Origin: a phage
Reading direction: 5' to 3' (one strand)
DNA length: 64,000 nt
Sequence record: PZ091942.1
The notes under the pieces were generated by a model. It did not search any database, had not been told where the DNA came from, and worked only from the letters and a program-made list of their open reading frames with translations. Position 1 is the stretch's first letter; each line of letters opens with the position of its first letter. Shown here piece after piece: positions 30,300-45,827 of this stretch. Position numbers and translations under genes: made by a program.

Positions 30300-30325
30300 T
30301 TAAATTAAACAAAAAGGAATTTGTA

Positions 30326-30568: not shown

Positions 30569-30750
30569 ATAAATATACAATCATGTTTCGTACAGTATCA
30601 GCAGAAGGGAATATTCAATCTCTGGACATTCAAGCAGACCGCTTTGAATCACTTGGAACAAATGTTAATTTCTTCCGAGGTGCAGAGCTAGTAGGTATGT
30701 TCCAATCTGATGTATTGACTGGTGTGATCAAACACTTCGAAGTAGAATAA
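30565..30750 (+). CDS. hypothetical protein
   Basis: ORF track (GTG start overlapping upstream stop). Confidence 0.45.
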   Translation: MNKYTIMFRTVSAEGNIQSLDIQADRFESLGTNVNFFRGAELVGMFQSDVLTGVIKHFEVE

Positions 30751-30807
30751 TTTGCTTTAGCCTCTTCGAAAGAGGGGGCTAGTTCGAATTTAACTGGAGG
30801 TTGTAAA

Positions 30808-31224
30808 ATGGTTGATAATAAACTGGATATGTTTAAAAGTCGTATCTTAGATGTAGAGTATTCCAAAAACCTCTTTGAGAAACATAAGAAAGAGGCAAAG
30901 GAAGAATTAGAAAGTCTTCTGAAAGATGAAGAGATTCCACTCTTTAATCGCTGGTGCCTGTTTATGGAGCACAGCTCCCTTTTCCCTGTGGCTTCTAGCT
31001 CTATCAGCAGAGCTGTTAACTATGCAGTAGACCGTTATTATGACTTGGAGAGATATCGAACCTACACCCTCTCTGATATTTTTGAAGAGTATTGGTTCAA
31101 GGAAAAAGAATTGTCGAACAGTGATCTTGTGGAAGCTGTTAAGGAGAGTTTTGAACTAATCTCTGAAAAAGATGTTCGATCAATCATCTTCTCCGGATAT
31201 TCTGGTTTCCTATACGATTGGTAG
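30808..31224 (+). CDS. hypothetical protein
   Basis: ORF track; GGAGG SD. Confidence 0.6.
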   Translation: MVDNKLDMFKSRILDVEYSKNLFEKHKKEAKEELESLLKDEEIPLFNRWCLFMEHSSLFPVASSSISRAVNYAVDRYYDLERYRTYTLSDIFEEYWFKEKELSNSDLVEAVKESFELISEKDVRSIIFSGYSGFLYDW

Positions 31225-31230
31225 ACAGTC

Positions 31231-31428
31231 ATGAAAAAGATTTTACTCCTCCTCTCCTTATTCAGCGTATCAGCAATCGCCGCTGATGAATGCATCTCTA
31301 AAGATTCAGGGAGAGGTCAAATCGTAACTCAATGTGGCAGCCATGTAACGGTTGTCGATTCTATAACTCAAACAATTCTCGTGTGTAACGGGACTTCTTG
31401 TACAAAAGAAATTCTAAACAAAAGGTAA
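31231..31428 (+). CDS. small secreted Cys-containing protein
   Basis: ORF track; signal-peptide-like N-terminus. Confidence 0.5.
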   Translation: MKKILLLLSLFSVSAIAADECISKDSGRGQIVTQCGSHVTVVDSITQTILVCNGTSCTKEILNKR

Positions 31429-31432
31429 TGTA

Positions 31433-31864
31433 ATGTCTGATAAAGTATTAGTTGCAACGTATGGTTCTCTTCGTAAAGGTCAACACAACCACGCTATCAA
31501 TGCTCGTGCCGGTGGTGTGTCTATTGGTGAAGGGTGGACAGTAAACAACTGTAACCTGTATCAGTATTGCACAGCATACTTCCCAAGTGTATCTCTGGTG
31601 CATGACAGCAATGGCAAGCCTGTTCGTGTAGAAGTCTTTGAAACAACCCAAGCTGGTCTGGAAGGTCCGTATGACGGTCTGGAAGGTTATCGTGGTAAAG
31701 ACAATCCGTACACCTTCTATAATCGTACACTGATTCCAGTAGTGCTGGATAATGGTGAAACTGTGGAAGCATGGATTTATCATATCGACGAAGAACAAGA
31801 TGTTCTGGTTGAATCTGGTGACTGGACAGCGTATCTGGCAGGTGAACAGGATGACAGTAACTGA
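31433..31864 (+). CDS. gamma-glutamyl cyclotransferase (AIG2/GGCT-like)
   Basis: ORF track; N-terminal VATYGSLRKG motif and downstream Glu (EAWIYH). Confidence 0.7.
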   Translation: MSDKVLVATYGSLRKGQHNHAINARAGGVSIGEGWTVNNCNLYQYCTAYFPSVSLVHDSNGKPVRVEVFETTQAGLEGPYDGLEGYRGKDNPYTFYNRTLIPVVLDNGETVEAWIYHIDEEQDVLVESGDWTAYLAGEQDDSN

Positions 31865-32093: not shown

Positions 32094-33884
32094 ATGTCAA
32101 AGATCATCCTAGGAGATACAGGTTGTAAAGAATGTATCTCTCATGGTCGTGATAAGACCCACAATCACATGATTCTCTTCCGAAATGAAGAGTCCGGTGA
32201 AGAGTGGGGCAGTTGTAATCGTTGTGGTAGTTATGAAGTTTTCGAAAAGGGAACAACTCCTACACCGAATGAGAAGAAAGAACTATCCCCTGAAGAACTC
32301 CGAGAGATCTTAGACGATTGCTTAGAGCTACCTCAGGGTGAGCTTACTCGTCGTTTGATTCCTAAAGCTGTCTCTGAACGGTATGAATGTCGTATTGGTT
32401 TAAGTCAGACAGATGGGCAAACTCCTGACAGTTATTTCTTCCCTCGTGAACGTGATGGAAACATTGTTGGTTATGAAGTTAAGCTTCTGGACAGCAAGAA
32501 GTTCTATTACATTGGCAGTGTTAAAGAAGCCGACTTGTTCGGCATGGCTCAAGCACAGCGTGGTGATGTATACAACAAGAAGCTCTTCATCTTTGAAGAC
32601 CCACTTTCTTGTATGTCTGGTTTCCATGTGCTCACTGCGTTCACGAACGCTACAAACATCAAACCTGCTTGTGTATCTCTACCGTTCGGTGCAGGTTCAA
32701 TCTCTTCCGTTCTATCACGTAACCGTGACTTCTTGAACGGTTTTGAGGAGATTGTACTCTGCATGGACAATGATGATGCGGGTGAGATTGCATTAACTAA
32801 AGGTCGTGCATTATATCCACATGTTAAGTTTGCTCGTATTCCGAAAGGAACCTTCACTTATAATGGTCAAGAGAAGGAGATCAAAGATGCGAACGACATG
32901 TTACTCGCTGGTCGAGGTCAAGAGCTATTCAACAATCTGAAATACTCAGCGAAGCGGGAATCGCCTGCTGGTGCTGTTACTGTCTTTGATTGCTTAGAAG
33001 ATGCTCTGAAGAAAGCGGAATGGGGTATTCCTTATCCGTGGAAAACTCTGAATGAGATGACCTTCGGCATTCGTTGGGGAGAGATGGTTGCTATCGGTGG
33101 TGGTGTTGGTTCAGGTAAAACCTTAATCGCACACGAACTGGTAGCATGGCTTTGCCTTGAACATGGTTTTAATGGTGGTGGCTTCTTCTTGGAAGAGAAG
33201 GTAGGCATGTCTGTTAAGAACATTGCAGGTAAGTCAGCATCTGTACCTTTCCACCGACCTGATGTTGAGTATGAGGAAGCTCAGTTACGTGACGAAGCAC
33301 TTCGTTACGCTGATAAGTTCTTCTTGTATGACAACTTCGGACAGAACGAGTGGGATGATATTAAGCAGTGTATTCGCTTCTGGGTAGTCGAGAATCAGTG
33401 TAAGTTTATCATTCTTGATAACATTACTGCGCTAGTCTCTCACCTAACTCCGTCTGAGGTGAATACAGAAATCAGTAAGATTGCTTCAGAGCTTGCTGGT
33501 ATGTGTAAGGAATTAGACTTCACTGCTTTTGTATTATCTCACTTGAATGCTCCGGCAGGTGGTGCTCCTCACGAAGAAGGTGGACAGGTGAAAGAAGTTC
33601 AGTTCACTGGTTCACGTTCACTAATGCGTTGGTGTCAGTGCATCATCGGTTTTGAGCGAGATAAGCAAGCTGATGGGTTAGGCAAGAACTTGTCAATCAT
33701 ACGACTCCTCAAAGAGCGTAACTATGGTCAGACAGGTGTTTGCTACACCAAGTACATCAATGAAACAGGTCGACTTGTAGAACGAGAAGATCATGAAGTT
33801 GATGAAGCTAATCCGTTTGTCTTGACCAATGGTGAGGATGCAGCTTCTCTGCTCACACAAGACGGGGAGGCACGACCTTGGTAA
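32094..33884 (+). CDS. T7 gp4-like primase-helicase
   Basis: ORF track; GGAGG SD; N-terminal Zn-ribbon (CKEC...CNRC), [14 protein letters not shown], Walker [10 protein letters not shown], Walker B FIILDN. Confidence 0.9.
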
Positions 33885-34426
33885 AGAAAATATTCGCCTT
33901 CGATATCGAGGGTGATAATCTTTATGAGGGCATCCAAAATGTCTGGTGTATCTGGATATTTGATGCTCTTACAGGTGAACGGTGGGGGTATCGCCCTCAC
34001 CAAATTGAAGAAGCTCTTCACAAACTGAAAGAAGCTGATGTAGTTGTAGGTCATAACATTATCGACTTCGACCTTCCAGCTCTCTTTAAATTCTACTCTC
34101 ATGTAATACCTTTCCACTTCAATGTCTTCGATACACTTTGCCTGAGTCGTTATCTCAAGCCTGACCGTATTGGAGACAATCCAGAATACCCCAAAGGCGA
34201 CCCTAGACATGGCCCTCGTGGTCATGGCCTCAAGCAATGGGGCGAATTCCTGGGTGAGCTGAAGGGTGATTATGGTGAGCAGGAAGAAGCATGGGATGCA
34301 TTCACTGAAGACATGTTCACATATTGTGAGCAAGACGTTAACTTAACAGTTAAGGTTTACATGTGTCTTTGCCAAATGGCAGGATTTGATTATAAGAATC
34401 CCCCATCTCTCAACTGGAAAATGTAG
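33878..34426 (+). CDS. DNA polymerase I-family 3'-5' exonuclease domain protein
   Basis: TTG start with GGGGAGG SD; Exo I FDIE, Exo [14 protein letters not shown]; strong by-eye match to T7 DNA polymerase N-terminus. Confidence 0.8.
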
Positions 34427-34428
34427 AA

Positions 34429-35877
34429 ATGATTAAGATTCCATTGTCTGAATTGAACCTTCAAGAAGGAGAAGCCCTCAGTGTAGGGCTTGACCTAATT
34501 CGTAATTTGATCAGAGATAACGTAGTCCCTGATGGTATCTATCCTGTCATTGCAGGTGGTGCTATCCGTGATACGTTCTTCCAAAATCGAACTCCGAATG
34601 ATGTTGATATCTTCCTAGTTCAAGGAGGGCTTCGTTGGAACACTCGTCAGGAAAACAGCCCTGCTAACGTAGGTAATGCTGCACTTTTCCTTGACAACTT
34701 CTTATCTTGGACAGAAAGTAAGGGGCTTCAGGTTACATCTCGACTAATTCAGCCTGTTAACGGGACAACCTATGCTGAAGCGCTTTTCACTTTCCAAGAG
34801 ATTCTGGAAATTGAGATTGATCAAGTTAAAATCCAGATGATGATTAATCTACCTTTGGATATGGATACTTTAAGCCGTCGCTTCCCTATGATCTGTCAAG
34901 GGTTTATGACTCTTGGTAATCTGTATGTGTCAAACGAAGGTTTGTTTGCAATGTCATACACTCGTGACATTCCTGTGGTATCTAGTCGTGAAATGAAGTA
35001 CGTTCACAAGAAGTGGCCTGAAGCAACTGTTGCAGTTTATAGCAGTTCTACCGAATATATGCACCTTGCAATGGGAGCTTTCGGTGAGCCAGAAGTTCAC
35101 CTGATTAGTGATTTAGTTGGACCTATGGCTGGTGTAAATTTATATCAGAATCAGCGTCGTCATTATACCCTGAAGATGATGGAAACTATATTAAACATTC
35201 CTCAGGAAAGGGGTCGTAGTTATCTGGACGAGGAAGTTAACCTACAGACAGAATGGTCTAGTGGATTAACCACTATCGGTGCTGAAGCAATCACACAACC
35301 TTGGACTCCGGGAACCAACAGACGTGACTCTTGGCAACAGGAAGTCCCAAGATTCGCAGCCCCTTCTACAATGGACCCTCGTAATACTTTTAATGGCAGT
35401 TTTGGTAGTGCACGTTCTTCTGGGACGGACACCCACAACCGTACATGGCATGTTCAAGGGGGAACTGCTCGTCCTATTCCTTCTCCGTCAATGGGTGATT
35501 TACAGCGTTCTCGTCGTTCATGGGAAACAGTAAGCTCAGTTGTTCAGGGTCTACGTGCTGGTGATATAGAACGTGTAGAAGTTGGTGATTTGCCAACCCC
35601 TATGGAAGATCGAGTGTCAACTATAGCGGCTCGTGAAGCTGCTCGTGTTGGTTTTCCATCTTTAGCTAATGATGCTAACAATACTCCTCGACCTGTCGGT
35701 CGTCGTAACGGTCTGGCTCACTCTGACACTGCACTTGGTGCAGAACTTCGAGCTGCTGCTCGTGAACTATCTGGTGAGCTTCATAACAACTTAGCAGGTG
35801 TTACACTATCTCGTGAAACAGCTCGCAACATGATTAACAATTTGGCATCATCTGTACAAGGAAATAGAAACTCATGA
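34429..35877 (+). CDS. Pol-beta superfamily nucleotidyltransferase (CCA-adding/poly(A) polymerase-like head domain)
   Basis: ORF track; IAGGAIRD-x9-DVDIF matches GGxVRD...DxD head-domain motif; C-terminal half is R/S/G/T-rich low complexity. Confidence 0.55.
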   Translation: MIKIPLSELNLQEGEALSVGLDLIRNLIRDNVVPDGIYPVIAGGAIRDTFFQNRTPNDVDIFLVQGGLRWNTRQENSPANVGNAALFLDNFLSWTESKGLQVTSRLIQPVNGTTYAEALFTFQEILEIEIDQVKIQMMINLPLDMDTLSRRFPMICQGFMTLGNLYVSNEGLFAMSYTRDIPVVSSREMKYVHKKWPEATVAVYSSSTEYMHLAMGAFGEPEVHLISDLVGPMAGVNLYQNQRRHYTLKMMETILNIPQERGRSYLDEEVNLQTEWSSGLTTIGAEAITQPWTPGTNRRDSWQQEVPRFAAPSTMDPRNTFNGSFGSARSSGTDTHNRTWHVQGGTARPIPSPSMGDLQRSRRSWETVSSVVQGLRAGDIERVEVGDLPTPMEDRVSTIAAREAARVGFPSLANDANNTPRPVGRRNGLAHSDTALGAELRAAARELSGELHNNLAGVTLSRETARNMINNLASSVQGNRNS

Positions 35878-36407
35878 GTCTTTTAGGTTCTCAAGAATTA
35901 CACAGCGTTATTGATAATGGCTTTTTAGATGCGGAGCATAAATATGTTAACGCTGCTAGCGTGGATATCCGTATTGGTGATACTATCCTTGTTGAAGAAC
36001 AGGCTGACGGCATTGTTGACATTGATGCTAAAGAAAACCTCAAGTGGAAAGAAGTAAAAATCCCTGAAGATGGTATCGTTATCACTCCGGGACAGTTCTT
36101 CTTAGCTCACTCGATGGAAGAGTTTAACCTTCCAGATAATATCTCAAGCCTGTTTGTACTCCGCTCCTCAATGGCTCGTTGTGGTTTAAACCACCTCCAT
36201 GCTGGTTGGGCTGATGCAGGGTTTAACAGCAGTAAACTAACCTTTGAATTTCATAACGTTACCCATAATCATAGCTTACGAGTTCGTGCTGGGATGCGTG
36301 TTGGTCAAATGGTTATGTTCGAACACTCTCACGCTGGTGATGACTCTTATGCAGTGAAGGGTCGATACAACGGCAGTAATGGTGTAGTTGCATCTAAGGG
36401 TGTATAA
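35874..36407 (+). CDS. dCTP deaminase-like (dUTPase fold)
   Basis: ORF track; ASVDIRIG, RSSMARCG, GWADAGF motifs. Confidence 0.7.
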   Translation: MSLLGSQELHSVIDNGFLDAEHKYVNAASVDIRIGDTILVEEQADGIVDIDAKENLKWKEVKIPEDGIVITPGQFFLAHSMEEFNLPDNISSLFVLRSSMARCGLNHLHAGWADAGFNSSKLTFEFHNVTHNHSLRVRAGMRVGQMVMFEHSHAGDDSYAVKGRYNGSNGVVASKGV

Positions 36408-36412
36408 CCAAG

Positions 36413-36604
36413 ATGAAAGAGGAAAAAGCTACTTACTTAGCTGTTGGTTTTATAGTTGGGGCATTTGCTATGGGAGTATTTATATCTAACGTTGGTCCAG
36501 ATTCTAGCGTTAAGATTGAGACGAGAAGAGCTGCTTGTGAAATAAATCTCCCTCGTAGTCAGGTCTGTGTAATGCAGTTTGTCCCTAAATCGGTTGACAG
36601 ATAA
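36413..36604 (+). CDS. hypothetical small membrane protein
   Basis: ORF track; hydrophobic N-terminal helix. Confidence 0.45.
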   Translation: MKEEKATYLAVGFIVGAFAMGVFISNVGPDSSVKIETRRAACEINLPRSQVCVMQFVPKSVDR

Positions 36605-36618
36605 TGGAGTTTGGAACA

Positions 36619-36816
36619 ATGAAAAGACGTTGGGTAGTTCGTATTCACTGGAGTAGTGGTACAGAGTCAATGGGTATTAGGAATACCCGTCAAGAAGCTC
36701 GCGCTCATAAGAAGTTCTTGTTAAGTTGTGAAAGCACAATTAATAAGATCACTATCCACAAAGCTCAAGACTTTAAATCAGGTCGTTTCTATATCAGCGG
36801 AAAGGTACATTACTAA
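36619..36816 (+). CDS. hypothetical small protein, tandem paralog A
   Basis: ATG 36619 with GGAG SD inside track ORF 36604..36816; NTRQEARAHKK...ISGKVHY. Confidence 0.5.
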   Translation: MKRRWVVRIHWSSGTESMGIRNTRQEARAHKKFLLSCESTINKITIHKAQDFKSGRFYISGKVHY

Positions 36817-37031
36817 TGGATAAATTATGGGCAGTTCGTACTAAATGGGCTAACAAAGCTCTTGGTGGTGATTGTATTCAATTATTCAACACAAGACAAG
36901 AGGCTCGTCTTGCTAAGAAAACTATAAAAGCTACAAAAGCTTTAGGAATCGCTGAAAAGGTGGAGATTCATCGTTGGATTGAAAATATCCATAACAGTGC
37001 TGGATTCATATCCAGCAAGGTTTATTACTAG
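36816..37031 (+). CDS. hypothetical small protein, tandem paralog B
   Basis: ORF track; NTRQEARLAKK...ISSKVYY parallels upstream gene. Confidence 0.5.
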   Translation: MDKLWAVRTKWANKALGGDCIQLFNTRQEARLAKKTIKATKALGIAEKVEIHRWIENIHNSAGFISSKVYY

Positions 37032-37101
37032 TTGGTAGTAGATATGATAACTCTCAAATGTATATACAGTATAAGAATATTGTATGAAACAGGAGAGAGT
37101 T

Positions 37102-37431
37102 ATGTTAGATTTGAGTAAAGTGGCCCCGCCATCTGAAGAGATTAGCAAAGCTAAAGTTATGCAGCAGTTCTACCATCGGGATATGCTTGGTCGTTATATC
37201 AAGAATCGTGATGTTGTTGCATGGTCTATTGGAAATCAAGGTTATCTTCTCAAAGTGTTGCAAGTTACTGGCTCAACAGCCAAGCGTGTTAAGGTGTATG
37301 ACCCTGAAATGGGGCGTTCTAAGTCTGTAGACCCACAGAACTGCATCGTTATTACCCAGCAAGTAATGGATAATATTGAACGCAATGTAGCGAACTCAAC
37401 TAACTTAGAGGGAGAATCTCCAAATGCATAA
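37102..37431 (+). CDS. hypothetical protein
   Basis: ATG 37102 with AGGAGAGAG SD inside track ORF 37084..37431. Confidence 0.55.
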   Translation: MLDLSKVAPPSEEISKAKVMQQFYHRDMLGRYIKNRDVVAWSIGNQGYLLKVLQVTGSTAKRVKVYDPEMGRSKSVDPQNCIVITQQVMDNIERNVANSTNLEGESPNA

Positions 37432-37990
37432 TAATGTCTTCGACTTACCAGAACTGACACGAGTGGGTTCTAGCAACCCATTCTCTACAACTGACTCTTC
37501 TATCTCTCGTCTAGAGGGAATGAATAAACTGATCAGTGGTAACAGTCTAGAGCACATCCTATGCGGTGTGCAGGCTAACCTTGAGCTTCTACACATCAAA
37601 GCAAAGAATTATCACTGGAACGTCTCTGGAGCTGGTTTCCAAGGTGTTCATGGTATGTTCGATGAATTAGAAGACTATGCTCGTGAAACTGGTGATCGGG
37701 TAGCAGAGCGAATGCGTTATCACTGTATTAAAGTGGATGCAACAGCTAGTAGCTATCTTGGTTGTGCTTGGTTCCGAGAAGGTAACGCTGATCTCGACAT
37801 GGACGGTATGCTTTCCGACATGTGCATGACTCTTATGTGTATGATTGAGAAGATGGATGAGTTTGATTCAGACTTGTGCACCTATCCAGTAGACCAGAGT
37901 ATGCTTCAAGAAATTAATGAAGGTCTTGGCAAGTTCTGTTACTTCGTCAAGAGCAACATGTCCCACTCTAGTGGCGATGTGTCTTACTAA
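37424..37990 (+). CDS. Dps/ferritin-like protein
   Basis: ORF track; GAGGGAG SD; LQANLELLHIKAKNYHWNVSGAGFQGVHGMFDELEDY matches Dps signature. Confidence 0.55.
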   Translation: MHNNVFDLPELTRVGSSNPFSTTDSSISRLEGMNKLISGNSLEHILCGVQANLELLHIKAKNYHWNVSGAGFQGVHGMFDELEDYARETGDRVAERMRYHCIKVDATASSYLGCAWFREGNADLDMDGMLSDMCMTLMCMIEKMDEFDSDLCTYPVDQSMLQEINEGLGKFCYFVKSNMSHSSGDVSY

Positions 37991-38053
37991 TCAAACCTCC
38001 GCCCTGTCTCTTTGTTTAAGAGGTGGGGCGAACTTCTTTATAAGGATATGAAT

Positions 38054-38233
38054 ATGTTTTCAGCAATCGTATGGTCTGTGTGGGCAATTTTTGTTGGTGG
38101 TATCGTTTATCTGGCTCAGAAGCAGATGCTTAAAGAGAATCCAAATGATGCTAAACCTATTAAACATGGTAGCATTGCTCTGGTAGTTTTCTCTGTTGTC
38201 ATTCCTTTCCTTCTCCACCTGTTGACTGCATAA
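38054..38233 (+). CDS. small membrane protein, tandem paralog 1
   Basis: ATG 38054 with AAGGA SD inside track ORF 38012..38233 (TTG); two hydrophobic helices. Confidence 0.45.
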   Translation: MFSAIVWSVWAIFVGGIVYLAQKQMLKENPNDAKPIKHGSIALVVFSVVIPFLLHLLTA

Positions 38234-38242
38234 GGGTTTGAT

Positions 38243-38428
38243 ATGATTTCACTGATTGTGTGGGCCGTGTGGTCATTAATAGTTGGTACTGTTATATATA
38301 AAGCTCGAAATTTAGCAATTAAAGAAAACCCAGCAGAAGAGGATGTTAAAGCTATCAAGCTGGGTAGTGTTGTTCTGGTACATTTTGCTATAACACTACC
38401 TCTTGTTATTATTCTTTGTATGCTATAA
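38243..38428 (+). CDS. small membrane protein, tandem paralog 2
   Basis: ORF track; AAGGG SD; similar two-helix layout and KENP motif. Confidence 0.5.
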   Translation: MISLIVWAVWSLIVGTVIYKARNLAIKENPAEEDVKAIKLGSVVLVHFAITLPLVIILCML

Positions 38429-38618
38429 GGAATCCAAAGAGTGAAACTAAACCTACCTGAAGAATTACAAGCACATGCCATTATCGTTAGTGGCTGTGTG
38501 ATGGGTCTTGGTCAAACAAAGAAGATTGCTCACGACTTAGCAAAAGGTCAGTATAAATCTTTTATTGTTGTTCCTGCTACCCAGCGTCATATCAACCTGT
38601 TTATTAACAAGGAATAGA

Positions 38619-38897
38619 ATGAGTAAAGTAATTAAGTTTTATAGTAATTCATGTGCTCCATGTGCAGCTATGGCTCCTGTGTTTAAGAAGGTTGTAGCTG
38701 ATTACAACGTAGAGGTTGAAGAAGTAAATATCTCTGAAGGTGATGGTCGAGAGCGAGCCATTGAATACGGTGTTCGCAGTATCCCAGCCTTTGTTGTCCC
38801 TGACCGTAATAGTGGTGCACATTATAGTTTATCAGGTATGCAGACCGAAGCAAACCTGAAAGCATTTTTGGATACAGCTCTGAATGGTAATCGATGA
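38619..38897 (+). CDS. thioredoxin/glutaredoxin-like protein (CxxC)
   Basis: ATG 38619 with AAGGA SD inside track ORF 38565..38897; FYSNSCAPC active-site-like motif. Confidence 0.7.
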   Translation: MSKVIKFYSNSCAPCAAMAPVFKKVVADYNVEVEEVNISEGDGRERAIEYGVRSIPAFVVPDRNSGAHYSLSGMQTEANLKAFLDTALNGNR

Positions 38898-39354
38898 TTT
38901 AGAGTATATCCCCGAAACTGGAGAGTTCTTCCGAAATGGTAAGAAGTTAGGAGGAACTCGAAGTAAGTACATAACCCTACGGTTTAAAGGGAAGGTACAC
39001 AAAGCTCATAAAGTGGCATGGTTCTTTTATTATGGAGAATGGCCTTCTTCTCAGATAGATCATATCGACAGAAACAAGAAGAACAACTCAATACAGAACT
39101 TAAGACTGGTAGACACTTCGACAAACTGCCACAACCAGTTCGGGGCTAGAGTATCAAACAAGGAAACAGGGCTTCAAGGTGTTAAGGTTGTCAAATATAG
39201 ATCAGGGACTATTAGATATAGAGCTGTTATCTGTATTGATAAAGTAGACATACATCTAGGTATGTATGGCACTGCCGAAGAAGCCCATCAAGTTTACATG
39301 AATCGAAAAAAGGAACTTTTAATTGAACGAACAACTACAAGCAACACTGATTGA
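38884..39354 (+). CDS. HNH homing endonuclease
   Basis: ORF track; IDHIDRNKKNNSIQNLRL HNH motif; sits between trx-like and thyX-like genes. Confidence 0.7.
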   Translation: MVIDDLEYIPETGEFFRNGKKLGGTRSKYITLRFKGKVHKAHKVAWFFYYGEWPSSQIDHIDRNKKNNSIQNLRLVDTSTNCHNQFGARVSNKETGLQGVKVVKYRSGTIRYRAVICIDKVDIHLGMYGTAEEAHQVYMNRKKELLIERTTTSNTD

Positions 39355-39976
39355 AGCAATGGGTAGTGACAAATCTGTAGTCAACGCAGCTAGGGTATCT
39401 TTCGGTGTTGTTCGAGAAGGTGACTTAAATGAGAGAGACACAAAACTTATCAATTTCCTTGCACGGGAAAAACACTGCACGCCTTTCCGTCATCCGACAA
39501 TTAGCTTCCGATGCAAAGCGCCAATCGCAATTGCGAGACAGTTGGGCAAGCATCAAGTTGGATTCTCGTGGAACGAAATGTCCCGGAGGTATAAAGATGG
39601 AGCAGTTGAATGCTTTGTCCCTGAAGAGATTTTTGAAAGACCTTCAGACCTCCATGCAGGTTCGGGGAGCCTCCTTATCGGAGCCAATGGTGAAGCAGCA
39701 AAAGTAGCCTTTGAACGTGCTTATACTTTAGCTGTTCAGACATACGAAGGGTTGTTATCAGAAGGTGTTGCACCAGAACAAGCTCGATTCGTATTGCCTC
39801 AGGGCATGATCACTGAGTGGGTCTGGACAGGTTCTTTATTCGGTTGGTCAGAGTTATGTCGTCAGCGACTGTCAGACCACGCTCAGTATGAAGTACGAGT
39901 GTTTGCATCAACTATTGATGAAGAGCTTCGTAAAATCTACCCAATCTCTTGGGATGCATTACGTGAAGCCCACTAA
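39323..39976 (+). CDS. thyX: flavin-dependent thymidylate synthase (ThyX)-like protein
   Basis: TTG start with AAAGGAA SD; AARVSF, TPFRH, KAPIAIARQ, NEMSRRY, RFVLPQ...WT, SDHAQYE align with T. maritima ThyX; RHR signature reads KHQ. Confidence 0.7.
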   Translation: MNEQLQATLIEAMGSDKSVVNAARVSFGVVREGDLNERDTKLINFLAREKHCTPFRHPTISFRCKAPIAIARQLGKHQVGFSWNEMSRRYKDGAVECFVPEEIFERPSDLHAGSGSLLIGANGEAAKVAFERAYTLAVQTYEGLLSEGVAPEQARFVLPQGMITEWVWTGSLFGWSELCRQRLSDHAQYEVRVFASTIDEELRKIYPISWDALREAH

Positions 39977-40148
39977 AGCATGTAGCTTCTGTCGAAAGCA
40001 GAAGCTTCTTATCAATTTCAAGCTGAACGAGGAAACAGGTTTGGGTCATGCTTTTTGTCATGATTGCAGGCACTACCTCGAACAGAAGCAATACATAAAC
40101 TGGTTGCATTACTGCAACCCTAACATCTATAAGCACAAGGTTATCTAA

Positions 40149-40628
40149 ATGAAAGCTATTTTTGAAGGAAGGGAGTATGATGTTCCTGATTGGGTTAAAT
40201 ACATAGCTCGTGACTATGATAATCTGGTTTGGGCATATGGAGACGTAAGACCTGTGTTTAATGAAAACACTGGTAGTTGGTCTAACATGTCAAAATTACC
40301 AGGATTTATTCGGGCACTTGGCTCTTCTAGTCGTCCTGTAGGTTTCGCTGCTGACTCACTTGTTGAGGTTGGTGTTGAAAAGGAAATAGACAAGCCAGAA
40401 ACGATTTGGGTTTTATCTTCAAGCACACCAATCAAGGGAAGTCGTGGGATTTCCTTCTATGTTGAGCCTGTCGCTTACTTCAAAAACAAGCCGACCATTA
40501 ATGCTCTTATGTTAAAGAATATCCCTTATTCGCAAGTTACCACCCTGTTAGACAATGGGACAGTGCTTGTTGAGAATAACGGGACAAATCAAATCTTTTA
40601 TGATTTAGAAGAAAGGGTTTTAGAATGA
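40149..40628 (+). CDS. hypothetical protein
   Basis: ORF track; AAGG SD. Confidence 0.6.
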   Translation: MKAIFEGREYDVPDWVKYIARDYDNLVWAYGDVRPVFNENTGSWSNMSKLPGFIRALGSSSRPVGFAADSLVEVGVEKEIDKPETIWVLSSSTPIKGSRGISFYVEPVAYFKNKPTINALMLKNIPYSQVTTLLDNGTVLVENNGTNQIFYDLEERVLE

Positions 40629-40837
40629 AAGGTTTAGGATTAGGAAAGCACCGTTTTACTTTCCGCATCTCCGACAGGAACCCATACCCAACGAAGATTG
40701 AACCTTACGAGATCATCTCTGAGGTGTTTATCTGGCCTTGGCAGAGTATCTATGATGTTGCTCTTAAGTCCAAGAAGAAGCTGATACCTGTTGGTATTTG
40801 GGCTGATGTTGATTTAATTAAAATCGAAAAGGTTTAA
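40625..40837 (+). CDS. hypothetical protein
   Basis: ORF track; ATGA overlap. Confidence 0.5.
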   Translation: MKGLGLGKHRFTFRISDRNPYPTKIEPYEIISEVFIWPWQSIYDVALKSKKKLIPVGIWADVDLIKIEKV

Positions 40838-40838
40838 A

Positions 40839-41159
40839 ATGATTAATGATAATACATTTAGGACTGGTAACGGAAACGAGATTAGTCCTGCTGAAGTGAT
40901 TAAACGACACAGAACACAGATGCTTATCCACTCCTATTTGTATTATTGGTTGGATGACCCAATCTGGTCTGACGATAAGTGGCAACAAGTGGCTGATGAC
41001 TTAACCACCTTGCAGGAGATGTATCCCGAACCTATTGGATTCTTTGATTCAGAGTTTGAAGGATGGAACGGTTCTACTGGTATGCATCTCCCACATGACG
41101 AGCGTATTGCTTGTATGGCTACTGAAGTATATCGTTTACATAAGGACAAATCAATCTGA
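40839..41159 (+). CDS. NAD-dependent DNA ligase domain-Ia-like protein (tentative)
   Basis: ORF track; IHSYLYYWLDDPIWSDDKWQQVADDLTTLQEMYPEPIGFFDSEFEG resembles LigA N-terminal domain Ia (YxYYVxDxPxISDxEYDxL...LE...PEL...DSP). Confidence 0.5.
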   Translation: MINDNTFRTGNGNEISPAEVIKRHRTQMLIHSYLYYWLDDPIWSDDKWQQVADDLTTLQEMYPEPIGFFDSEFEGWNGSTGMHLPHDERIACMATEVYRLHKDKSI

Positions 41160-41337
41160 AATGTTTTAAATGTGAATCAACTCTTCTCCATTTGAACTCG
41201 AAAGTAATACGGGAGCTTGCCAAAGGCTCCCCGACTAAAGGGAAGAATAAGAAGTTTGTCGAAATTAAGGTTATAGGTATACATTGTTCAGAGTGTAAAT
41301 CCTGTAGCTTCTTATATGAAGAACACGGAGGTAGGAA

Positions 41338-42078
41338 ATGAGTCGTAGAGAATCTCGGAAAGCATCACGGAGAGAATTACGTCGTGAAGCTCTCGTCACC
41401 AAGAAAGGAAAGCGGGAATTTGAAGAAGTAGTTCTTGCTAAGCCGGTAGTACCTCAGAACCAATTCCAGAGTGAGCTACTCAATGCTATCAAGACTAAAC
41501 AAGTGGTGTTCACAGACGCTCCTGCGGGCTGTGGTAAGACGTTCGTCATCACCTCTACTGTCATTGATGCACTGAAGAGTGGTAAGATTCAAAAGATTAT
41601 CATTAGCCGACCCTCTGTTGGCATGGGTAATTCTCTTGGATTACTTCCGGGCGGGCTTCGTGATAAGTTCGAACCATACCTAATGCCTATTGTTGATGTG
41701 ATTACTCAGCGATACGGTAAAGGTTTCTATGAATGTCAGCTTGGTAATGGGAACATTGAGTTTGTACCTCTGGAATATCTCCGTGGTCGATCTTTCAATG
41801 ATGCCATTGTTATTGTGGATGAGTTCCAGAATACAACCAAAGATGAGGCATTCTCTATCATGACCCGCTTGGGTGAAACATCCCAGCTGTTCTGTATGGG
41901 TGACACAAACCAGCACGATATGAAAGGTCGAGAGAGTGGTCTTACTTGGGCTACCGAGTTTATTGATGAGCACGACCTGTATGAGTTCGCTGATATTGTT
42001 GATGGCGACTCAGGTGATATTGTTCGTTCTGGTTTCTGTAAAGCAATTGTTAAAGCTATGGAAAAGGATGGTAATTAA
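41338..42078 (+). CDS. phoH: PhoH-like ATPase
   Basis: ORF track; GGAGG SD; Walker A DAPAGCGKT, Walker B IVDEFQN. Confidence 0.8.
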   Translation: MSRRESRKASRRELRREALVTKKGKREFEEVVLAKPVVPQNQFQSELLNAIKTKQVVFTDAPAGCGKTFVITSTVIDALKSGKIQKIIISRPSVGMGNSLGLLPGGLRDKFEPYLMPIVDVITQRYGKGFYECQLGNGNIEFVPLEYLRGRSFNDAIVIVDEFQNTTKDEAFSIMTRLGETSQLFCMGDTNQHDMKGRESGLTWATEFIDEHDLYEFADIVDGDSGDIVRSGFCKAIVKAMEKDGN

Positions 42079-42264
42079 ATGCAAGTTGCCCTAGTTATCC
42101 GAGACTGTGGTGATGGTACTTCTACCATTGACTTCTACAAAAACATTGAACAAGCATGTTTTGAGTGTGAAGAATTTAATGAAGATACCTGTGTAAATGA
42201 TGGTGAACCAACTATTATTGATGTTCCTGACACTTTTGTACCACCTACAGGGTGGTGTGACTAG
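42079..42264 (+). CDS. hypothetical acidic small protein
   Basis: ORF track; TAAATG overlap; D/E-rich. Confidence 0.5.
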   Translation: MQVALVIRDCGDGTSTIDFYKNIEQACFECEEFNEDTCVNDGEPTIIDVPDTFVPPTGWCD

Positions 42265-42335
42265 GGCTGGCAACTAAAGCCACCCTCTCATAATGTATAC
42301 TCCTTAGTGTACACTGATATGTTAAGGAGTTGTAA

Positions 42336-42650
42336 ATGACTGATAAGGCTAAAAGAGATTATGCACAAGAACGAAGAACTGCAATCGCAAGGGGTGAGAC
42401 CGGCGTTGGTAGCAAGAGCGGAGATGCTCAGCGCCACCGTGCACGTCGCATCGTTGAAAAGCGCGATGGAAAAGCTGCTGTCCGAGGTAAAGATGTTGGA
42501 CACAAACGATCAATCAAGTCGGGAGGTTCTAATGCGTCAAGTAACTTACGTGTTGAATCAATCTCTGGAAATCGCTCGAACGGCGGCAAAAGTGGAGATC
42601 GTGCTGGAAAATCAGCAGGCGGTCGCAAAGGAGCTTTAAGCTCAAGTTAA
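42336..42650 (+). CDS. basic Gly/Arg/Lys-rich protein
   Basis: ORF track; AAGGAG SD 7 nt upstream; NNT-biased codons match other phage genes. Confidence 0.5.
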   Translation: MTDKAKRDYAQERRTAIARGETGVGSKSGDAQRHRARRIVEKRDGKAAVRGKDVGHKRSIKSGGSNASSNLRVESISGNRSNGGKSGDRAGKSAGGRKGALSSS

Positions 42651-42655
42651 TATAA

Positions 42656-42684
42656 GGCTACCCATTTCGGGTGGCCTTTTCTTT
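42656..42684 (+). terminator. rho-independent terminator (UUCG-type loop)
   Basis: GGCTACCC-ATTTC-GGGTGGCC then TTTTCTTTT. Confidence 0.7.
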
Positions 42685-42706
42685 TATATAACCTAAGGTA
42701 ATAAAT

Positions 42707-42958
42707 ATGTCTAAAGTAACTTATATCACTGTAACTGATTTCTTTCCTTTTCTGGATGTAACTGAAAGCTACACCTTCCCCGTGAGCAATGTTACAAGCT
42801 CTGTTGAGATGATTCAATTTAACCCAACAACAGCTCGTACTAACGTGGCTCTTCGTGGTCCTGATGGCAAGTTCATCTCCTTCCGTGATAAGAGTGTTCC
42901 TAAGCGTATTGCTAAGTCTATTGAAAACTTGAAACCTTTCCCTAACTTTGGTGCATAA
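42707..42958 (+). CDS. hypothetical protein, tandem paralog 1
   Basis: ORF track; TARTNVALRGPDGKFISFRD...NLKPFP. Confidence 0.55.
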   Translation: MSKVTYITVTDFFPFLDVTESYTFPVSNVTSSVEMIQFNPTTARTNVALRGPDGKFISFRDKSVPKRIAKSIENLKPFPNFGA

Positions 42959-42959
42959 T

Positions 42960-43217
42960 ATGAAGATCAGCTTAATCCAAATCCGTGATCATCTCTTTAA
43001 TGGTGATGCTCAGACTCATGATTACAAGGTTAATCAAGGACAACACCCTACCAATCATCTTATTGGAGGGATTTCTCTATTACCTAATAAAACAGCACGG
43101 ACGAATGTAATGATTCGTGGTAAGGATGGTAAATTCCTCTCTTATCGTGACCCTGAAATCTGTGATGATGTTCGTACAGCTATGAACAATCTGAAACCTT
43201 TCCCGACAGTGGAGTAA
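42960..43217 (+). CDS. hypothetical protein, tandem paralog 2
   Basis: ATG 42960 inside track ORF 42948..43217; TARTNVMIRGKDGKFLSYRD...NLKPFP. Confidence 0.5.
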   Translation: MKISLIQIRDHLFNGDAQTHDYKVNQGQHPTNHLIGGISLLPNKTARTNVMIRGKDGKFLSYRDPEICDDVRTAMNNLKPFPTVE

Positions 43218-43220
43218 GTT

Positions 43221-43574
43221 ATGCCAGTACCTCAACGCCTAGAACGTCACTGCGTTCTCAAATGGGACAATATTCATGACAACCTCTCCATTCAAGAGTT
43301 TCGTCAGTTTATTGAATTAACAGCGAAGATTAACCGAAACCAACCAGCTCGAAACTTTGTAGTGGTTAGTGATAAGTATCCTGAGTTGTATGAGCAGGTG
43401 TGGGGTATGAAACTTGCACAGGTTCAGAGGAACAGTAATGAACGGAGAGAAGCTCGTAGGCAGCGAGCAGAAGATATTCCAGCAGTCTTTTATGTGGATG
43501 AATTGACGGAATCCTATGAACAGTTAGATATCGTTGAGGATAACCAAGCGTTCACTGATTTAATATACCAATAA
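43221..43574 (+). CDS. hypothetical protein
   Basis: ORF track; GGAG SD. Confidence 0.6.
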   Translation: MPVPQRLERHCVLKWDNIHDNLSIQEFRQFIELTAKINRNQPARNFVVVSDKYPELYEQVWGMKLAQVQRNSNERREARRQRAEDIPAVFYVDELTESYEQLDIVEDNQAFTDLIYQ

Positions 43575-43590
43575 TTATAAGGAGTGGGTG

Positions 43591-45435
43591 ATGGATAACC
43601 CTGATAAGTTACCTTTCATAACGGAGATGACAGTCGCTGATATAATCTCAAAGCAGGCGAAGCATGGCGTCAACTTCCACAGAAGAAACGCTCGGTGGTT
43701 TGTTCACCTTCTCAAAGAGATTATTGTCAATATTGATAAAGAACTGATTCCTCTCCTCCCCAAAATGCGGGTGGATGGTTCAACTTATTCGAAACCTTTT
43801 AAGAAGTCAGGTGCTTTGCAAAAGTGGCCTCAGCTCTATTGTGACAGAGTTGGTCTTAAAAGAGAAGATATCGGTGGGGCGTTTACTTGCGTTGAGTATG
43901 TAGACTTTGACCCATCGAAAGATGCACGTATTAAAGAAGCCTTGATGGATGAAGGCTTCATTCCTCCAGAGTGGAATACATCCAAGAAACCTTGGAATAC
44001 TTATGAAATCCGTAAAGCGATGAAGAAGTATGGCACATATGCTGCTTGGTATTCTGCTTGGATGCGAGGAAACGCTAAAGAAAAACAGACAGCTGAGATG
44101 ATTGATGCTGACATTCGTCGGTTCTTGGATAAACACTTCCGTTATCACACTGTCAACTACATGAAAGCCTACGTCAGCGGTTTAGGTTTGAATCCTAATA
44201 GGAAGAAGCCTGTAACCTTTGATGAAATCAAGAAAGCTTTAGCCATGTCAAACAAGTGGCCTACAGCTCCTACAAACCTTGAGGAGACACTTGAAGAAGG
44301 TCTTGGTGGTGATCTAGGAGGTGTGGGAAGTCTGCTTAAGAGACGCGTTGTAGCGGCTCACAGACTTGGTTTGATTAGCGGGCTTATCGACAAGGAACGT
44401 AAAGATGGTAAGTTGTCCGCCGAAGCTAATAGCTGCGCTACTCCGACATTTCGTTTTAAACATCGCATTGTTGTTAATATTCCTTCTCGCGGTTTGTTTG
44501 GTCACGAGTGCCGCAGTCTTTTTCAATCTGACTATTCCTCAGACGATAGTCATAACTATCCTTTCATCATTACCAACCATATCCCTGATGGGTGTTACGT
44601 ACGAAAAGGTACTAACATTATCTACGAAGTGGGAAAACCGGGCAAGAAAGACAAACCTGTAGGTGCCTATAAATTCTATGTACCTGCTGGTCGTGAAATC
44701 TTCTTAGGTTACGATGGCTCTGGTCTTGAGCTGAGGATGCTAGCTCACTACCTTATTAAAGAATGTCGTGAGATGCTCGCTGAAGCAGAGCGAGAAAACA
44801 ACCCAGCTAAGAAACGAGAAGCTGAACGTGGTCTAGCTTCTGCTGTTATGTACAGAGATATTCTTTTAGAAGGAGATATTCACTCACATAACCAAAAACT
44901 TGCTGGTCTTCCTACTCGCGATAACGCTAAGACGTTTATATATGCCTTTAACTATGGGGCAGGTGACGCTAAGCTAGGAAGTATCGTAGGTGGTGGCTCT
45001 GACGAAGGGGCTATTATGAGAGCAAGATTCTTAGCAGAGAATCCTTGTATTGCAATCCTTATTGAACGTATGACCGAGAAAGCACAAAGTGGATACATCT
45101 ACGGTGTGGATGGACGTCGTATTACAATGAGAAGGGATGCAACTGGAAAGGTTATGGTTCATAAAGCCTTAAATACGCTCTTACAGAGCGCTGGGGCGAT
45201 TGTTATGAAGTATGCAATGCTATTCCTCAATAAATGGATTGAGCGTGATGGTGTTCGTTGTGCGAAGGTTATCGACATGCATGATGAAGGCCAGTTCACT
45301 GTACATCGTGAAGATGTTAACAAACTTCGTACTCTCACTGAAGAGTGTGTTCGTAAAGCGGGTGAATACCTCAAGATGGAATGCCCTCTTGCATCAGATT
45401 GTAAGATTGGGCTTAACTGGAATCATACTCACTAA
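43591..45435 (+). CDS. family-A DNA polymerase, polymerase domain (T7 gp5-like)
   Basis: ATG 43591 with AAGGAG SD; motif A region GYDGSGLELRMLAH, motif B RDNAKTFIYAFNYGAG, motif C VIDMHDEGQF, C-terminal His. Confidence 0.9.
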   Translation: MDNPDKLPFITEMTVADIISKQAKHGVNFHRRNARWFVHLLKEIIVNIDKELIPLLPKMRVDGSTYSKPFKKSGALQKWPQLYCDRVGLKREDIGGAFTCVEYVDFDPSKDARIKEALMDEGFIPPEWNTSKKPWNTYEIRKAMKKYGTYAAWYSAWMRGNAKEKQTAEMIDADIRRFLDKHFRYHTVNYMKAYVSGLGLNPNRKKPVTFDEIKKALAMSNKWPTAPTNLEETLEEGLGGDLGGVGSLLKRRVVAAHRLGLISGLIDKERKDGKLSAEANSCATPTFRFKHRIVVNIPSRGLFGHECRSLFQSDYSSDDSHNYPFIITNHIPDGCYVRKGTNIIYEVGKPGKKDKPVGAYKFYVPAGREIFLGYDGSGLELRMLAHYLIKECREMLAEAERENNPAKKREAERGLASAVMYRDILLEGDIHSHNQKLAGLPTRDNAKTFIYAFNYGAGDAKLGSIVGGGSDEGAIMRARFLAENPCIAILIERMTEKAQSGYIYGVDGRRITMRRDATGKVMVHKALNTLLQSAGAIVMKYAMLFLNKWIERDGVRCAKVIDMHDEGQFTVHREDVNKLRTLTEECVRKAGEYLKMECPLASDCKIGLNWNHTH

Positions 45436-45746: not shown

Positions 45747-45827
45747 TGATTAGTTCAGTGGAAGAGTTGAATGGTATTACGAAATGAACTAGTCATATTG
45801 ATTAGTTCTTTTTAAGGAGACAAGGAA

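Follow-up and report, generated by a model that had tools for sequence, protein, structure and literature searches.

The T7-type DNA polymerase of a phiEco32-like podophage of E. coli (Gordonclarkvirinae) is encoded by two separate genes that lie about 9.2 kb apart. We analysed a stretch of 64,000 nucleotides from this phage (sequence record PZ091942.1; hereafter the window), which is 95% identical at the nucleotide level to phage ECBP2. The original prediction had placed a 3'-5' exonuclease directly behind the primase-helicase and the remainder of a family A polymerase in a distant second gene, and this division was confirmed (Table 1). As both parts match their domain families with strong E-values, the assignment of a split polymerase is not a pattern produced by chance. 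The two open reading frames (ORFs) are probably two subunits of one T7-type replicative family A polymerase, derived from an old fission in the linker between its domains and docking non-covalently after translation. Like its relatives, the phage thus possesses a complete proofreading polymerase divided between two genes, and for the window the result is chiefly a correct annotation. The novelty that had been implied does not stand, since this split had already been annotated and described in phiEco32-like and LUZ24-like phages.

Table 1. Features of the split polymerase region, in positions of the window
Feature	Position	Strand	Basis or remarks
T7 gp4-type primase/helicase	32094..33884	+	Pfam DnaB_C, Toprim_2
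Shine-Dalgarno GGGGAGG of the exonuclease gene	33863..33869	+	Within the 3' end of the helicase gene; read from the sequence
3'-5' proofreading exonuclease subunit (predicted), 182 aa, TTG start	33878..34426	+	Equivalent of T7 gp5 residues 1 to ~205
Intervening block, 9.2 kb, ~20 genes	34429..43587	+	Between the exonuclease and polymerase genes; nucleotidyltransferase, dCTP deaminase, Dps/ferritin-like, thioredoxin, HNH, ThyX, Nlig-Ia domain protein, PhoH, small ORFs
Phage thioredoxin, CAPC motif	38622..38897	+	Pfam Thioredoxin, E=3.6e-12
Terminator-like hairpin followed by a T-run	42654..42678	+	Pattern scan only; between the exonuclease and polymerase genes
Polymerase subunit (predicted), thumb/palm/fingers, 614 aa	43591..45435	+	Equivalent of T7 gp5 residues ~209 to 704
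Empty intron site between codons H564 and D565 (motif C)	45282..45283	+	blastn break points, junction sequences

The exonuclease gene begins with a TTG codon 8 nt downstream of a GGAGG Shine-Dalgarno and overlaps the stop of the primase/helicase gene (ccTTGGTAA); in phage SU7, a ribosome-binding site is annotated at the equivalent position. Its product matched Pfam DNA_pol_A_exo1 (PF01612; E=9e-7, 29.3 bits against a cut-off of 23.6) and PHROG 403, 'DNA polymerase exonuclease subunit' (E=4e-38), and aligned with T7 gp5 residues 3-142 (E=3e-9), with D9 and E11 opposite T7 D5 and E7. The motifs quoted in the original prediction are present, and the full DEDDy set comprises Exo I (DxE) as FDIE with D9/E11, Exo II (Nx2-3[F/Y]D) as N60...F64-D65 and Exo III (Yx3D) as YCEQD with Y149/D153. 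D9, E11, N60, D65, Y149 and D153 were invariant among 19 homologues. The AF2 model (pLDDT 92.6) has the T7 gp5 exonuclease domain as its best PDB match (TM 0.75), and NrnC and diDNase are also among its structural matches. By these comparisons the ORF is a complete T7 gp5-type 3'-5' exonuclease domain with all of its catalytic residues, and it is predicted to be active. It is under strong purifying selection (dN/dS 0.034 versus SU7). None of the 35 homologues found by word search, which are 105-195 aa long, carries a polymerase domain; 34 of them are 163-195 aa long with query coverage of at least 91%, and the remaining one is a 105-aa partial match. In a profile search, the nearest matches were stand-alone proteins too, and fused forms appeared only further out.

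The polymerase ORF is longest from a GTG at 43588, which gives 615 aa, whereas the ATG at 43591 lies 6 nt downstream of AAGGAG, is the start annotated in ECBP2 and gives 614 aa. The original prediction was right about this start and about motifs A, B and C, but its length of 615 aa was one residue too long. The ORF matched Pfam DNA_pol_A (PF00476; E=5.5e-24, 85 bits against a cut-off of 34) and T7 gp5 (E ~7e-34). Its AF2 model (pLDDT 88) has the overall thumb/palm/fingers fold, and its top 27 PDB matches are all T7 gp5 (E ~1e-25). Motif A (DxxxLExR) reads YDGSGLELRMLAH, aligned with T7 'IDASGLELRCLAH'; motif B (RxxxKxxxFxxxYG, the O-helix) reads RDNAKTFIYAFNYGAG, aligned with T7 'RDNAKTFIYGFLYGAG'; and motif C reads MHDEGQ. 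Within these motifs, D375, E380 and R382 (motif A), R443, K447, Y451 and Y455 (motif B) and H564, D565 and E566 (motif C) were invariant in 30 homologues, and the gene is under strong purifying selection (dN/dS 0.042). As judged from these matches, the ORF is a complete family A polymerase domain with motifs A, B and C. Compared with fused relatives and T7, it carries about 110 extra residues at 133-244, with further insertions elsewhere relative to the fused relatives; these insertions may affect a possible interface between exonuclease and polymerase. We considered whether the ~360 residues that precede the Pfam match contain a remnant of an exonuclease, and rejected this: they are the thumb, a T7 TBD-like region and the ~110-aa insertion.

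Alignment to T7 gp5 and to fused relatives confirmed the domain boundaries. The two products tile PHROG 17 back to back, with the exonuclease on positions 670-826 and the polymerase on 837-1233. They likewise tile the fused relative P0144, in which exonuclease residues 4-164 match residues 2-148, and polymerase residues 12-132 and 245-614 match residues 164-281 and 304-611. On T7 gp5, the junction of both parts maps at about residues 200-208. The alignment of the exonuclease with its counterpart domain in T7 runs through residue 180 of 182, and the polymerase ORF starts 11 residues upstream of the polymerase domain's first conserved helix, with no exonuclease domain at its N terminus. Conservation extends to the exonuclease's C-terminal tail and the N terminus of the polymerase, both of which correspond to the linker of T7 gp5. 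These alignments place the break in the interdomain linker, with nothing missing and nothing duplicated relative to the fused relatives and T7 gp5.

The next gene opens with an ATG just 2 nt behind the exonuclease stop, and the ORF ends are so tight at both termini that there is no space for halves of an intein or intron. Neither a split intein (an N-intein of ~100 aa after the exonuclease and a C-intein of ~35 aa before the polymerase) nor intron halves were found at either flank, and an Rfam scan of the window returned a tRNA as its sole match and no intron. We therefore rejected rejoining by a split intein or by trans-splicing. We also rejected a programmed -1 frameshift that would fuse helicase and exonuclease: the exonuclease is in the -1 frame, but the overlap of the two genes has no slippery heptamer (X XXY YYZ), and the strong Shine-Dalgarno and TTG start explain the overlap.

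Comparison with related phages showed that the split is kept in close and distant relatives. The arrangement is identical in at least 20 independently sequenced relatives, and the exonuclease and a polymerase-only gene co-occur in every relative inspected; in at least six metagenomic cases, matches to the two parts lie on contigs of the same length. The order of primase/helicase, exonuclease and, downstream on the same strand, polymerase is shared by the window, ECBP2, SU7, WS1160 (Bruynoghevirus) and the metagenomic contigs L007 and L008, and the exonuclease directly follows the helicase in L004, L007 and L008. At this boundary, the genes of the window and distant relatives overlap by 7, 17 or 29 nt, with one gap of 8 nt. 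The distance from exonuclease to polymerase is far more variable: 9.2 kb in the window, about 2 kb in a LUZ24-like phage, 3.2 kb in L007 and more than 10 kb in L008. One further contig, that of P0151, has a possible split with parts about 0.3 kb apart, in which a 176-aa ORF is the candidate exonuclease; it may represent at least one additional split or a short-gap intermediate. Where the polymerase is fused, the entire polA follows the primase/helicase gene, at a distance of 85 nt in MQM1 and with one 222-aa ORF in between in the P0144 contig. In a neighbour-joining tree of 131 polymerase domains, a rough method with bootstraps computed on a 70-taxon subset, the polymerase-only sequences form one clade with all 36 fused forms outside (87/100), which suggests that one old fission lies behind all of them.

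The genes predicted between the two parts held up well. The dCTP deaminase, ferritin/Dps-like protein, HNH, ThyX, PhoH and thioredoxin were confirmed, and the nucleotidyltransferase was matched in PHROGs only, with no Pfam match. The thioredoxin-binding region of T7 gp5 (residues 283-362) shows a weak alignment to polymerase residues 53-134 (28% identity, pairwise E=3e-5), and the phage thioredoxin is possibly a processivity partner of the polymerase subunit, a hypothesis already published for phage Privateer (PMC7881722). The hairpin upstream of the polymerase gene is a possible boundary between transcription units. In SU7, a terminator is annotated at about the same position (L002 12502-12546), as placed through an alignment block that begins at window 42351 = L002 12208. 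With hairpins between them, the exonuclease and polymerase genes may thus belong to different transcription units; a scan for sigma-70 promoters gave 19 matches against 31 in shuffled sequence and was uninformative on this point. At exactly the H564/D565 site that is empty in the window phage, ECBP2 and SU7 have a 607-bp group-I-like intron that contains an HNH ORF; against Rfam RF00028, this intron scored E=8.8e-5 and 27 bits, under the gathering score of 50. The MQM1 polymerase gene is annotated with two introns.

The original prediction offered two functional alternatives, assembly in trans and a stand-alone proofreader, and these are still the appropriate ones. The most likely explanation of these data is that the two proteins assemble in trans into a T7-like two-subunit replicase. 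According to this model, the ancestral gene was cut in its interdomain linker. The exonuclease part would have kept the ancestral position of gene 5 directly behind the primase/helicase, its start codon overlapping the helicase stop, while the polymerase part shifted downstream and nucleotide-metabolism and small genes gathered in the gap. Both proteins would be active enzymes, and their non-covalent docking would resemble the packing of the two domains in T7 gp5 and allow a mismatched primer end to pass from the polymerase site to that of the exonuclease. Together with the primase/helicase, and possibly with the phage thioredoxin, the complex would form part of a T7-like replisome. The stability of PolA enzymes is reported to depend on the exonuclease domain, and for a split cyanophage enzyme AF2 predicts that the exonuclease-polymerase complex is preserved (PMC10201439). 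In the literature searched, we found no biochemical paper on a two-subunit enzyme of the phiEco32/LUZ24-type split. The exonuclease is translationally coupled to the helicase and not to the polymerase, and equal stoichiometry with the polymerase is therefore not guaranteed.

It is also possible, though we consider it unlikely, that the exonuclease is a dissociable or helicase-associated proofreader that does not bind the polymerase stably and either acts freely on mismatched 3' ends that the polymerase releases or enters the replisome through the primase/helicase, its partner in translation. In the window as in distant relatives, the exonuclease gene overlaps the end of the helicase gene or starts just behind it; the polymerase gene lies at a variable distance (about 2 kb to more than 10 kb), with terminator-like hairpins in between; and stand-alone DEDD nucleases of like size and fold exist (NrnC, diDNase). 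However, adjacency to the helicase is the ancestral T7 order of gene 4 followed by gene 5 and is also seen in fused relatives, and it need not mean that the proteins interact. Moreover, the best matches in sequence and structure are by far the exonuclease domains of PolA enzymes rather than free nucleases, and the reported dependence of PolA polymerase domains on their exonuclease domain for stability (PMC10201439) also argues against such a proofreader. A more doubtful variant is that the exonuclease is an exchangeable subunit of the replisome, made in step with the primase/helicase by way of the overlapping stop and start codons, and recruited through the helicase or only transiently to the polymerase. 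If so, proofreading and fidelity could be tuned independently of synthesis, in a family A equivalent of Pol III alpha-epsilon that has long been kept in two phage lineages.

We think it quite improbable that the exonuclease now serves a different purpose, for example in host DNA degradation, recombination or end processing, and that the polymerase replicates without proofreading. The two genes are physically unlinked, and other nucleases are encoded according to the literature on relatives (PMC9965538, PMC7881722), but the exonuclease accompanies a polymerase-only gene in all relatives inspected, matches to both parts recur on metagenomic contigs of equal length, the ends of both proteins that correspond to the T7 gp5 linker are conserved, and no new domain or motif change points to a new function. 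Finally, introns in the gene family (the motif C introns of ECBP2 and SU7, and those annotated in MQM1) and the term 'exons' for the LUZ24-type parts in one paper (PMC3890496) might suggest that the split is unreal at the protein level, through an assembly or sequencing artefact, a frameshift error, a decaying pseudogene, or rejoining by a split intein, RNA trans-splicing or programmed frameshifting, but this is hardly credible given about 20 intact genes between the parts, the same arrangement in so many independently sequenced phages and in distant clades, the tight ORF ends, the missing slippery site, the tRNA-only Rfam result and a dN/dS of ~0.03, which rules out decay.

A naturally split family A replicase, as favoured here, bears on how tightly proofreading and synthesis must be tethered, and the split polymerase is a ready-made two-piece enzyme for engineering.

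The closest known systems are those of the Gordonclarkvirinae/Kuravirus group and the LUZ24-like phages (Bruynoghevirus), whose 'DNA polymerase part I' and 'part II' are the same system as that of the window. This split has been described in 2012, 2014 and 2023 (PMC3517423, PMC3890496 and PMC9965538), and its first report is Savalia et al. 2008, according to the citation in PMC3517423. The ECBP2 gene bears the RefSeq label "DNA polymerase exonuclease subunit". The exonuclease of the window is orthologous to that of ECBP2 (99.5% amino acid identity) and to LUZ24-like part I (33-37%), and its polymerase is orthologous to LUZ24-like part II (41% over 99% of its length). All share the order ATP-grasp, GGCT, primase/helicase, exonuclease and, further on, polymerase. 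They differ in the size of the gap, and in the motif C intron, which is present in ECBP2, SU7 and LUZ24-type phages but not in the window.

A T7-like PolA is likewise cut at the boundary between exonuclease and polymerase domains in S-SBP1-like T7-like cyanophages (Czernecki et al. 2023, NAR, PMC10201439), for which AF2 modelling of the complex predicts that the normal interface is kept. In the cyanophages, the two genes are adjacent and overlapping, and the fission is a recent 1-nt frameshift with close unsplit relatives (PMC10201439). By contrast, the fission in the window appears old and is shared by two or more phage taxa, kilobases of sequence separate the two genes, and the exonuclease gene is coupled to that of the helicase. 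That 2023 survey of PolA enzymes reported fission between exonuclease and polymerase as seen in cyanophages "for the first time" (PMC10201439), which indicates that the phiEco32/LUZ24 split is under-appreciated, although it is older, deeper and non-adjacent.

For both parts of the window enzyme, the T7 system of gp5, thioredoxin and gp4 is the best match in sequence and structure. As in T7, motif B has a tyrosine at the position of T7 Y526 (Y451), one segment aligns weakly with the thioredoxin-binding region, and the helicase has an acidic C-terminal tail that ends in an aromatic residue, here W. Unlike T7 gp5, which is one 704-aa chain that uses host thioredoxin, the window enzyme consists of two chains totalling 796 aa, has extra insertions in the thumb and palm of the polymerase, and has a phage-encoded thioredoxin as its putative partner. 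Polymerase and 3'-5' exonuclease also reside on separate cooperating polypeptides in E. coli Pol III (alpha and epsilon, or DnaQ) and in archaeal PolD (DP1 and DP2). The analogy to PolD has been drawn for split PolA (PMC10201439); Pol III and PolD belong to the unrelated polymerase families C and D, and their exonuclease subunits did not come from fission of a PolA.

A megablast search with window positions 33000-46000 matched 99 phage records, 20 of which covered at least 80% of the query; the top record, Escherichia phage ECBP2 (a Suseptimavirus in the Gordonclarkvirinae), was 95% identical across 93% of the query. On the basis of these matches, we assign the window to the phiEco32-like E. 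coli podophages, a C3-morphotype group. As predicted from sequence, a T7 gp5-like 3'-5' exonuclease ORF lies next to the primase/helicase gene. Its product matched Pfam DNA_pol_A_exo1 (E=9e-7, exceeding the cut-off), PHROG 403 (E=4e-38) and T7 gp5 (residues 3-142 matched, E=3e-9). The start codon, with GGAGG 8 nt upstream, overlaps the primase/helicase stop codon (ccTTGGTAA), and the ATG of the next gene is 2 nt beyond the ORF end. Residues D9/E11 of Exo I (aligned with T7 D5/E7), N60/D65 of Exo II and Y149/D153 of Exo III were invariant in a 19-homologue alignment extending down to 37% identity, and dN/dS against the related phage SU7 was 0.034. The AF2 model (pLDDT 92.6) best matched the T7 gp5 exonuclease domain (TM 0.75, E=1e-10), with free DEDD nucleases such as NrnC matching much more poorly. 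None of the 35 homologues found by word search (105-195 aa) carried a polymerase domain; 34 were 163-195 aa long, the exception being one 105-aa partial match. A profile search against 1.8 billion representatives gave stand-alone proteins of 137-193 aa as the closest matches, with fused proteins of 570-700 aa appearing only from E ~1e-44 outward.

The separate polymerase ORF contains motifs A, B and C as predicted, but is probably 614 rather than 615 aa long. The most likely start is ATG 43591, which has AAGGAG 6 nt before it and is also where the ECBP2 annotation begins; the alternative GTG at 43588 would give 615 aa. This ORF matched Pfam DNA_pol_A (E=5.5e-24) and T7 gp5 (E=7e-34), and the top 27 PDB matches of its AF2 model (pLDDT 88) were all T7 gp5. 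D375/E380 (motif A), R443/K447/Y451/Y455 (motif B) and H564/D565/E566 (motif C) were invariant in 30 homologues, and dN/dS against SU7 was 0.042. All full-length homologues down to 36% identity, among them the LUZ24-like 'DNA polymerase part II', were polymerase-only proteins of 490-620 aa. The protein owes its extra length, compared with fused relatives and T7, to insertions at residues ~133-244, 305-365 and 392-420. The first is a helical thumb-region insertion of ~110 residues that is absent from fused relatives and T7 gp5 and has a confident AF2 model (pLDDT mostly 80-94); motif A is flanked on either side by smaller insertions.

In ECBP2 and SU7, the polymerase gene is interrupted by 607 bp exactly between the motif C codons H564 and D565, a site that is uninterrupted in the window. 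The insertion harbours an HNH endonuclease ORF and aligned with the complete group I intron model of Rfam at E=8.8e-5, its 27 bits falling short of the gathering score of 50; the last base of the 5' exon is T and that of the insert is G. The pieces of the interrupted gene are annotated as separate 'DNA polymerase' CDSs.

We then located the break between the two parts. In the fused relative P0144 (611 aa, both domains in one chain), residues 2-148 aligned with the exonuclease (39% identity), and residues 164-281 and 304-611 with the polymerase ORF (37-44% identity). A MAFFT alignment of both proteins with T7 gp5 and six fused relatives put the junction at T7 gp5 residues ~200-208, in the interdomain region flanked by the conserved PP...W tail on the exonuclease side and by the first conserved helix on the polymerase side. 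The full-length profile of PHROG 17 was covered by the exonuclease at positions 670-826 and by the polymerase at 837-1233. Together, the two parts show nothing lost and nothing duplicated. Alignments to fused relatives and T7 gp5 revealed no exonuclease remnant in the polymerase ORF, at its N terminus or elsewhere. There is no space at the termini of the two proteins for half of an intein or intron, no slippery site occurs where the helicase and exonuclease genes overlap, and an Rfam scan of the window found a tRNA alone. These results confirm the observation that a family-A polymerase is encoded as two genes and support its interpretation as a split enzyme.

The split order also holds in related phages. 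ECBP2, SU7, the Bruynoghevirus phage WS1160 and the metagenomic relatives L007 and L008 share the order ATP-grasp, gamma-glutamyl cyclotransferase, primase/helicase, exonuclease, N genes, polymerase. The exonuclease and polymerase genes are ~2 kb apart in WS1160, 3.2 kb in L007, 9.2 kb in the window and >10 kb in L008. In the window and its relatives, the exonuclease start and the helicase stop either overlap, by 7-29 nt, or are separated by 8 nt. In Aeromonas phage MQM1, a fused polA lies 85 nt downstream of the primase/helicase gene, and in the P0144 contig it is downstream of that gene with one 222-aa ORF between. Because the whole polA of fused relatives lies there, the exonuclease gene holds the place that the polymerase gene had ancestrally. 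A rough NJ tree of 131 polymerase domains placed all phiEco32-like and LUZ24-like polymerase-only sequences in a single clade with a mostly fused sister group, and in a 70-taxon subset this clade was free of fused sequences in 87 of 100 bootstraps. A contig encoding P0151, a 451-aa polymerase-only PolA that falls on the side of the mostly fused sister clade, has the order primase/helicase, 61-aa ORF, 176-aa ORF, 92-aa ORF, P0151, sigma-70-like factor, an apparent split with only the 92-aa ORF separating the parts. This contig may reflect another fission event or an intermediate stage with a short gap; fission may thus have occurred more than once, or may predate the polymerase-only clade.

Features of the window and of the polymerase insertion in related phages
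Feature	Coordinates	Remarks
tRNA-Arg	17927-18002	lone; anticodon TCT
ATP-grasp and gamma-glutamyl cyclotransferase genes	29052-31864	upstream of primase/helicase
Helicase C-terminal tail	33795-33881	last 30 residues
Exonuclease ORF	33878-34426 (+)	182 aa; TTG start
Putative nucleotidyltransferase	34429-35877	482 aa
Small paralogous ORF pair	36604-36816/36816-37031	32% identity over aligned parts
Terminator-like hairpin	38000-38030	
Small paralogous ORF pair	38012-38233/38243-38428	45% identity over aligned parts
Thioredoxin	38622-38897	CAPC motif
HNH endonuclease gene	38884-39354	Pfam HNH_3, E=1.6e-13
Swapped cassette	38890-39335	
Nlig-Ia-only protein	40839-41159	106 aa
Terminator-like hairpin	42654-42678	
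Small paralogous ORF pair	42707-42958/42948-43217	55% identity over aligned parts
Polymerase ORF	43591-45435 (+)	
Thioredoxin-binding-like segment	43747-43992	polymerase residues 53-134
Thumb-region insertion	43987-44322	
Empty motif C site	45282/45283	
Motif C insertion, ECBP2 (L001)	15119-15725	607 bp
Motif C insertion, SU7 (L002)	15140-15746	607 bp

Pfam and PHROGs bore out the genes predicted between the two parts, including nucleotidyltransferase, dCTP deaminase, Dps-like, thioredoxin, HNH, ThyX-like and PhoH genes. The protein directly after the exonuclease matched PHROG 12715 'nucleotidyltransferase' (E=7e-173) and nothing in Pfam; a motif of pol-beta type, GGxxRD...DVD, lies close to its N terminus, and R, S, G and N are abundant in its long C-terminal half. 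A PolyA_pol-like gene also lies near the fused polymerase of MQM1. Nlig-Ia is domain Ia, the N-terminal NAD+-binding domain of NAD-dependent DNA ligase; the protein consisting of it (E=8e-34) is labelled 'DNA ligase' in relatives, yet lacks the adenylation and OB domains. Among three pairs of neighbouring small paralogous ORFs, the one beginning at 38012 has the look of small membrane proteins. Most of the HNH gene has no ECBP2 nucleotide match, ECBP2 having other ORFs there, beside thyX; this segment is a swapped cassette. Upstream, the ATP-grasp protein is RimK-like ('ribosomal protein S6 glutaminyl transferase'); it and the cyclotransferase also precede primase/helicase in LUZ24-like phages and metagenomic relatives, and amidoligase and GATase genes accompany this module in relatives.

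The issue at stake is biochemical, namely how the exonuclease subunit acts and with which partner. The evidence best supports a two-subunit T7-type replicase, in which the exonuclease and polymerase subunits are predicted to dock non-covalently, like the domains of T7 gp5. The clean linker break with conserved new termini and the strict co-occurrence of the two genes support docking indirectly, as do the statements that PolA polymerase domains require the exonuclease domain for stability and that the interface of a split cyanophage enzyme is unchanged in an AF2 prediction (PMC10201439). Translational coupling of the exonuclease with the helicase, not with the polymerase, would also suit a dissociable or helicase-linked proofreader, a reading that we keep alive, although this adjacency is no more than the ancestral gene order. 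The two terminator-like hairpins between the exonuclease and polymerase genes, together with an annotated SU7 terminator at a comparable position, would likewise favour such a proofreader.

Beyond the two-subunit replicase itself, other T7-like replisome features appear to be present. The helicase tail is acidic (7 D/E versus 1 K/R) and ends in Trp, whose TGG codon overlaps the exonuclease TTG start; that of T7 gp4 is acidic too (...DTDF), but ends in Phe. Acidic, aromatic-ended tails also occur in relatives with split and fused polymerases alike. A polymerase segment aligns with T7 gp5 283-362, the thioredoxin-binding region, and the phage encodes its own thioredoxin (Pfam E=3.6e-12) between the two genes. 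The two may form a phage-supplied processivity pair, as hypothesised for phage Privateer (PMC7881722).

The split itself was already known. The ECBP2 RefSeq annotation and PHROG 403 both read 'DNA polymerase exonuclease subunit', and in the UFV-P2 paper the genes appear as 'DNA polymerase part I/II' (PMC3890496). The literature searched yielded no biochemical work on the two-subunit enzyme of the phiEco32/LUZ24 type. To what was known, our comparisons add the location of the break point at residue level, evidence for a single old fission common to two phage taxa, a variable distance between the two genes and an empty intron site in motif C. According to Glukhov et al. 2012, all LUZ24-group phages encode the polymerase and proofreading exonuclease as separate genes, and Savalia et al. 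2008 is cited there as reporting the same split for phiEco32 (PMC3517423). S-SBP1-like cyanophages also have separate exonuclease and polymerase genes, but in these phages the fission is a distinct, recent one and the genes are adjacent (Czernecki et al. 2023, PMC10201439).
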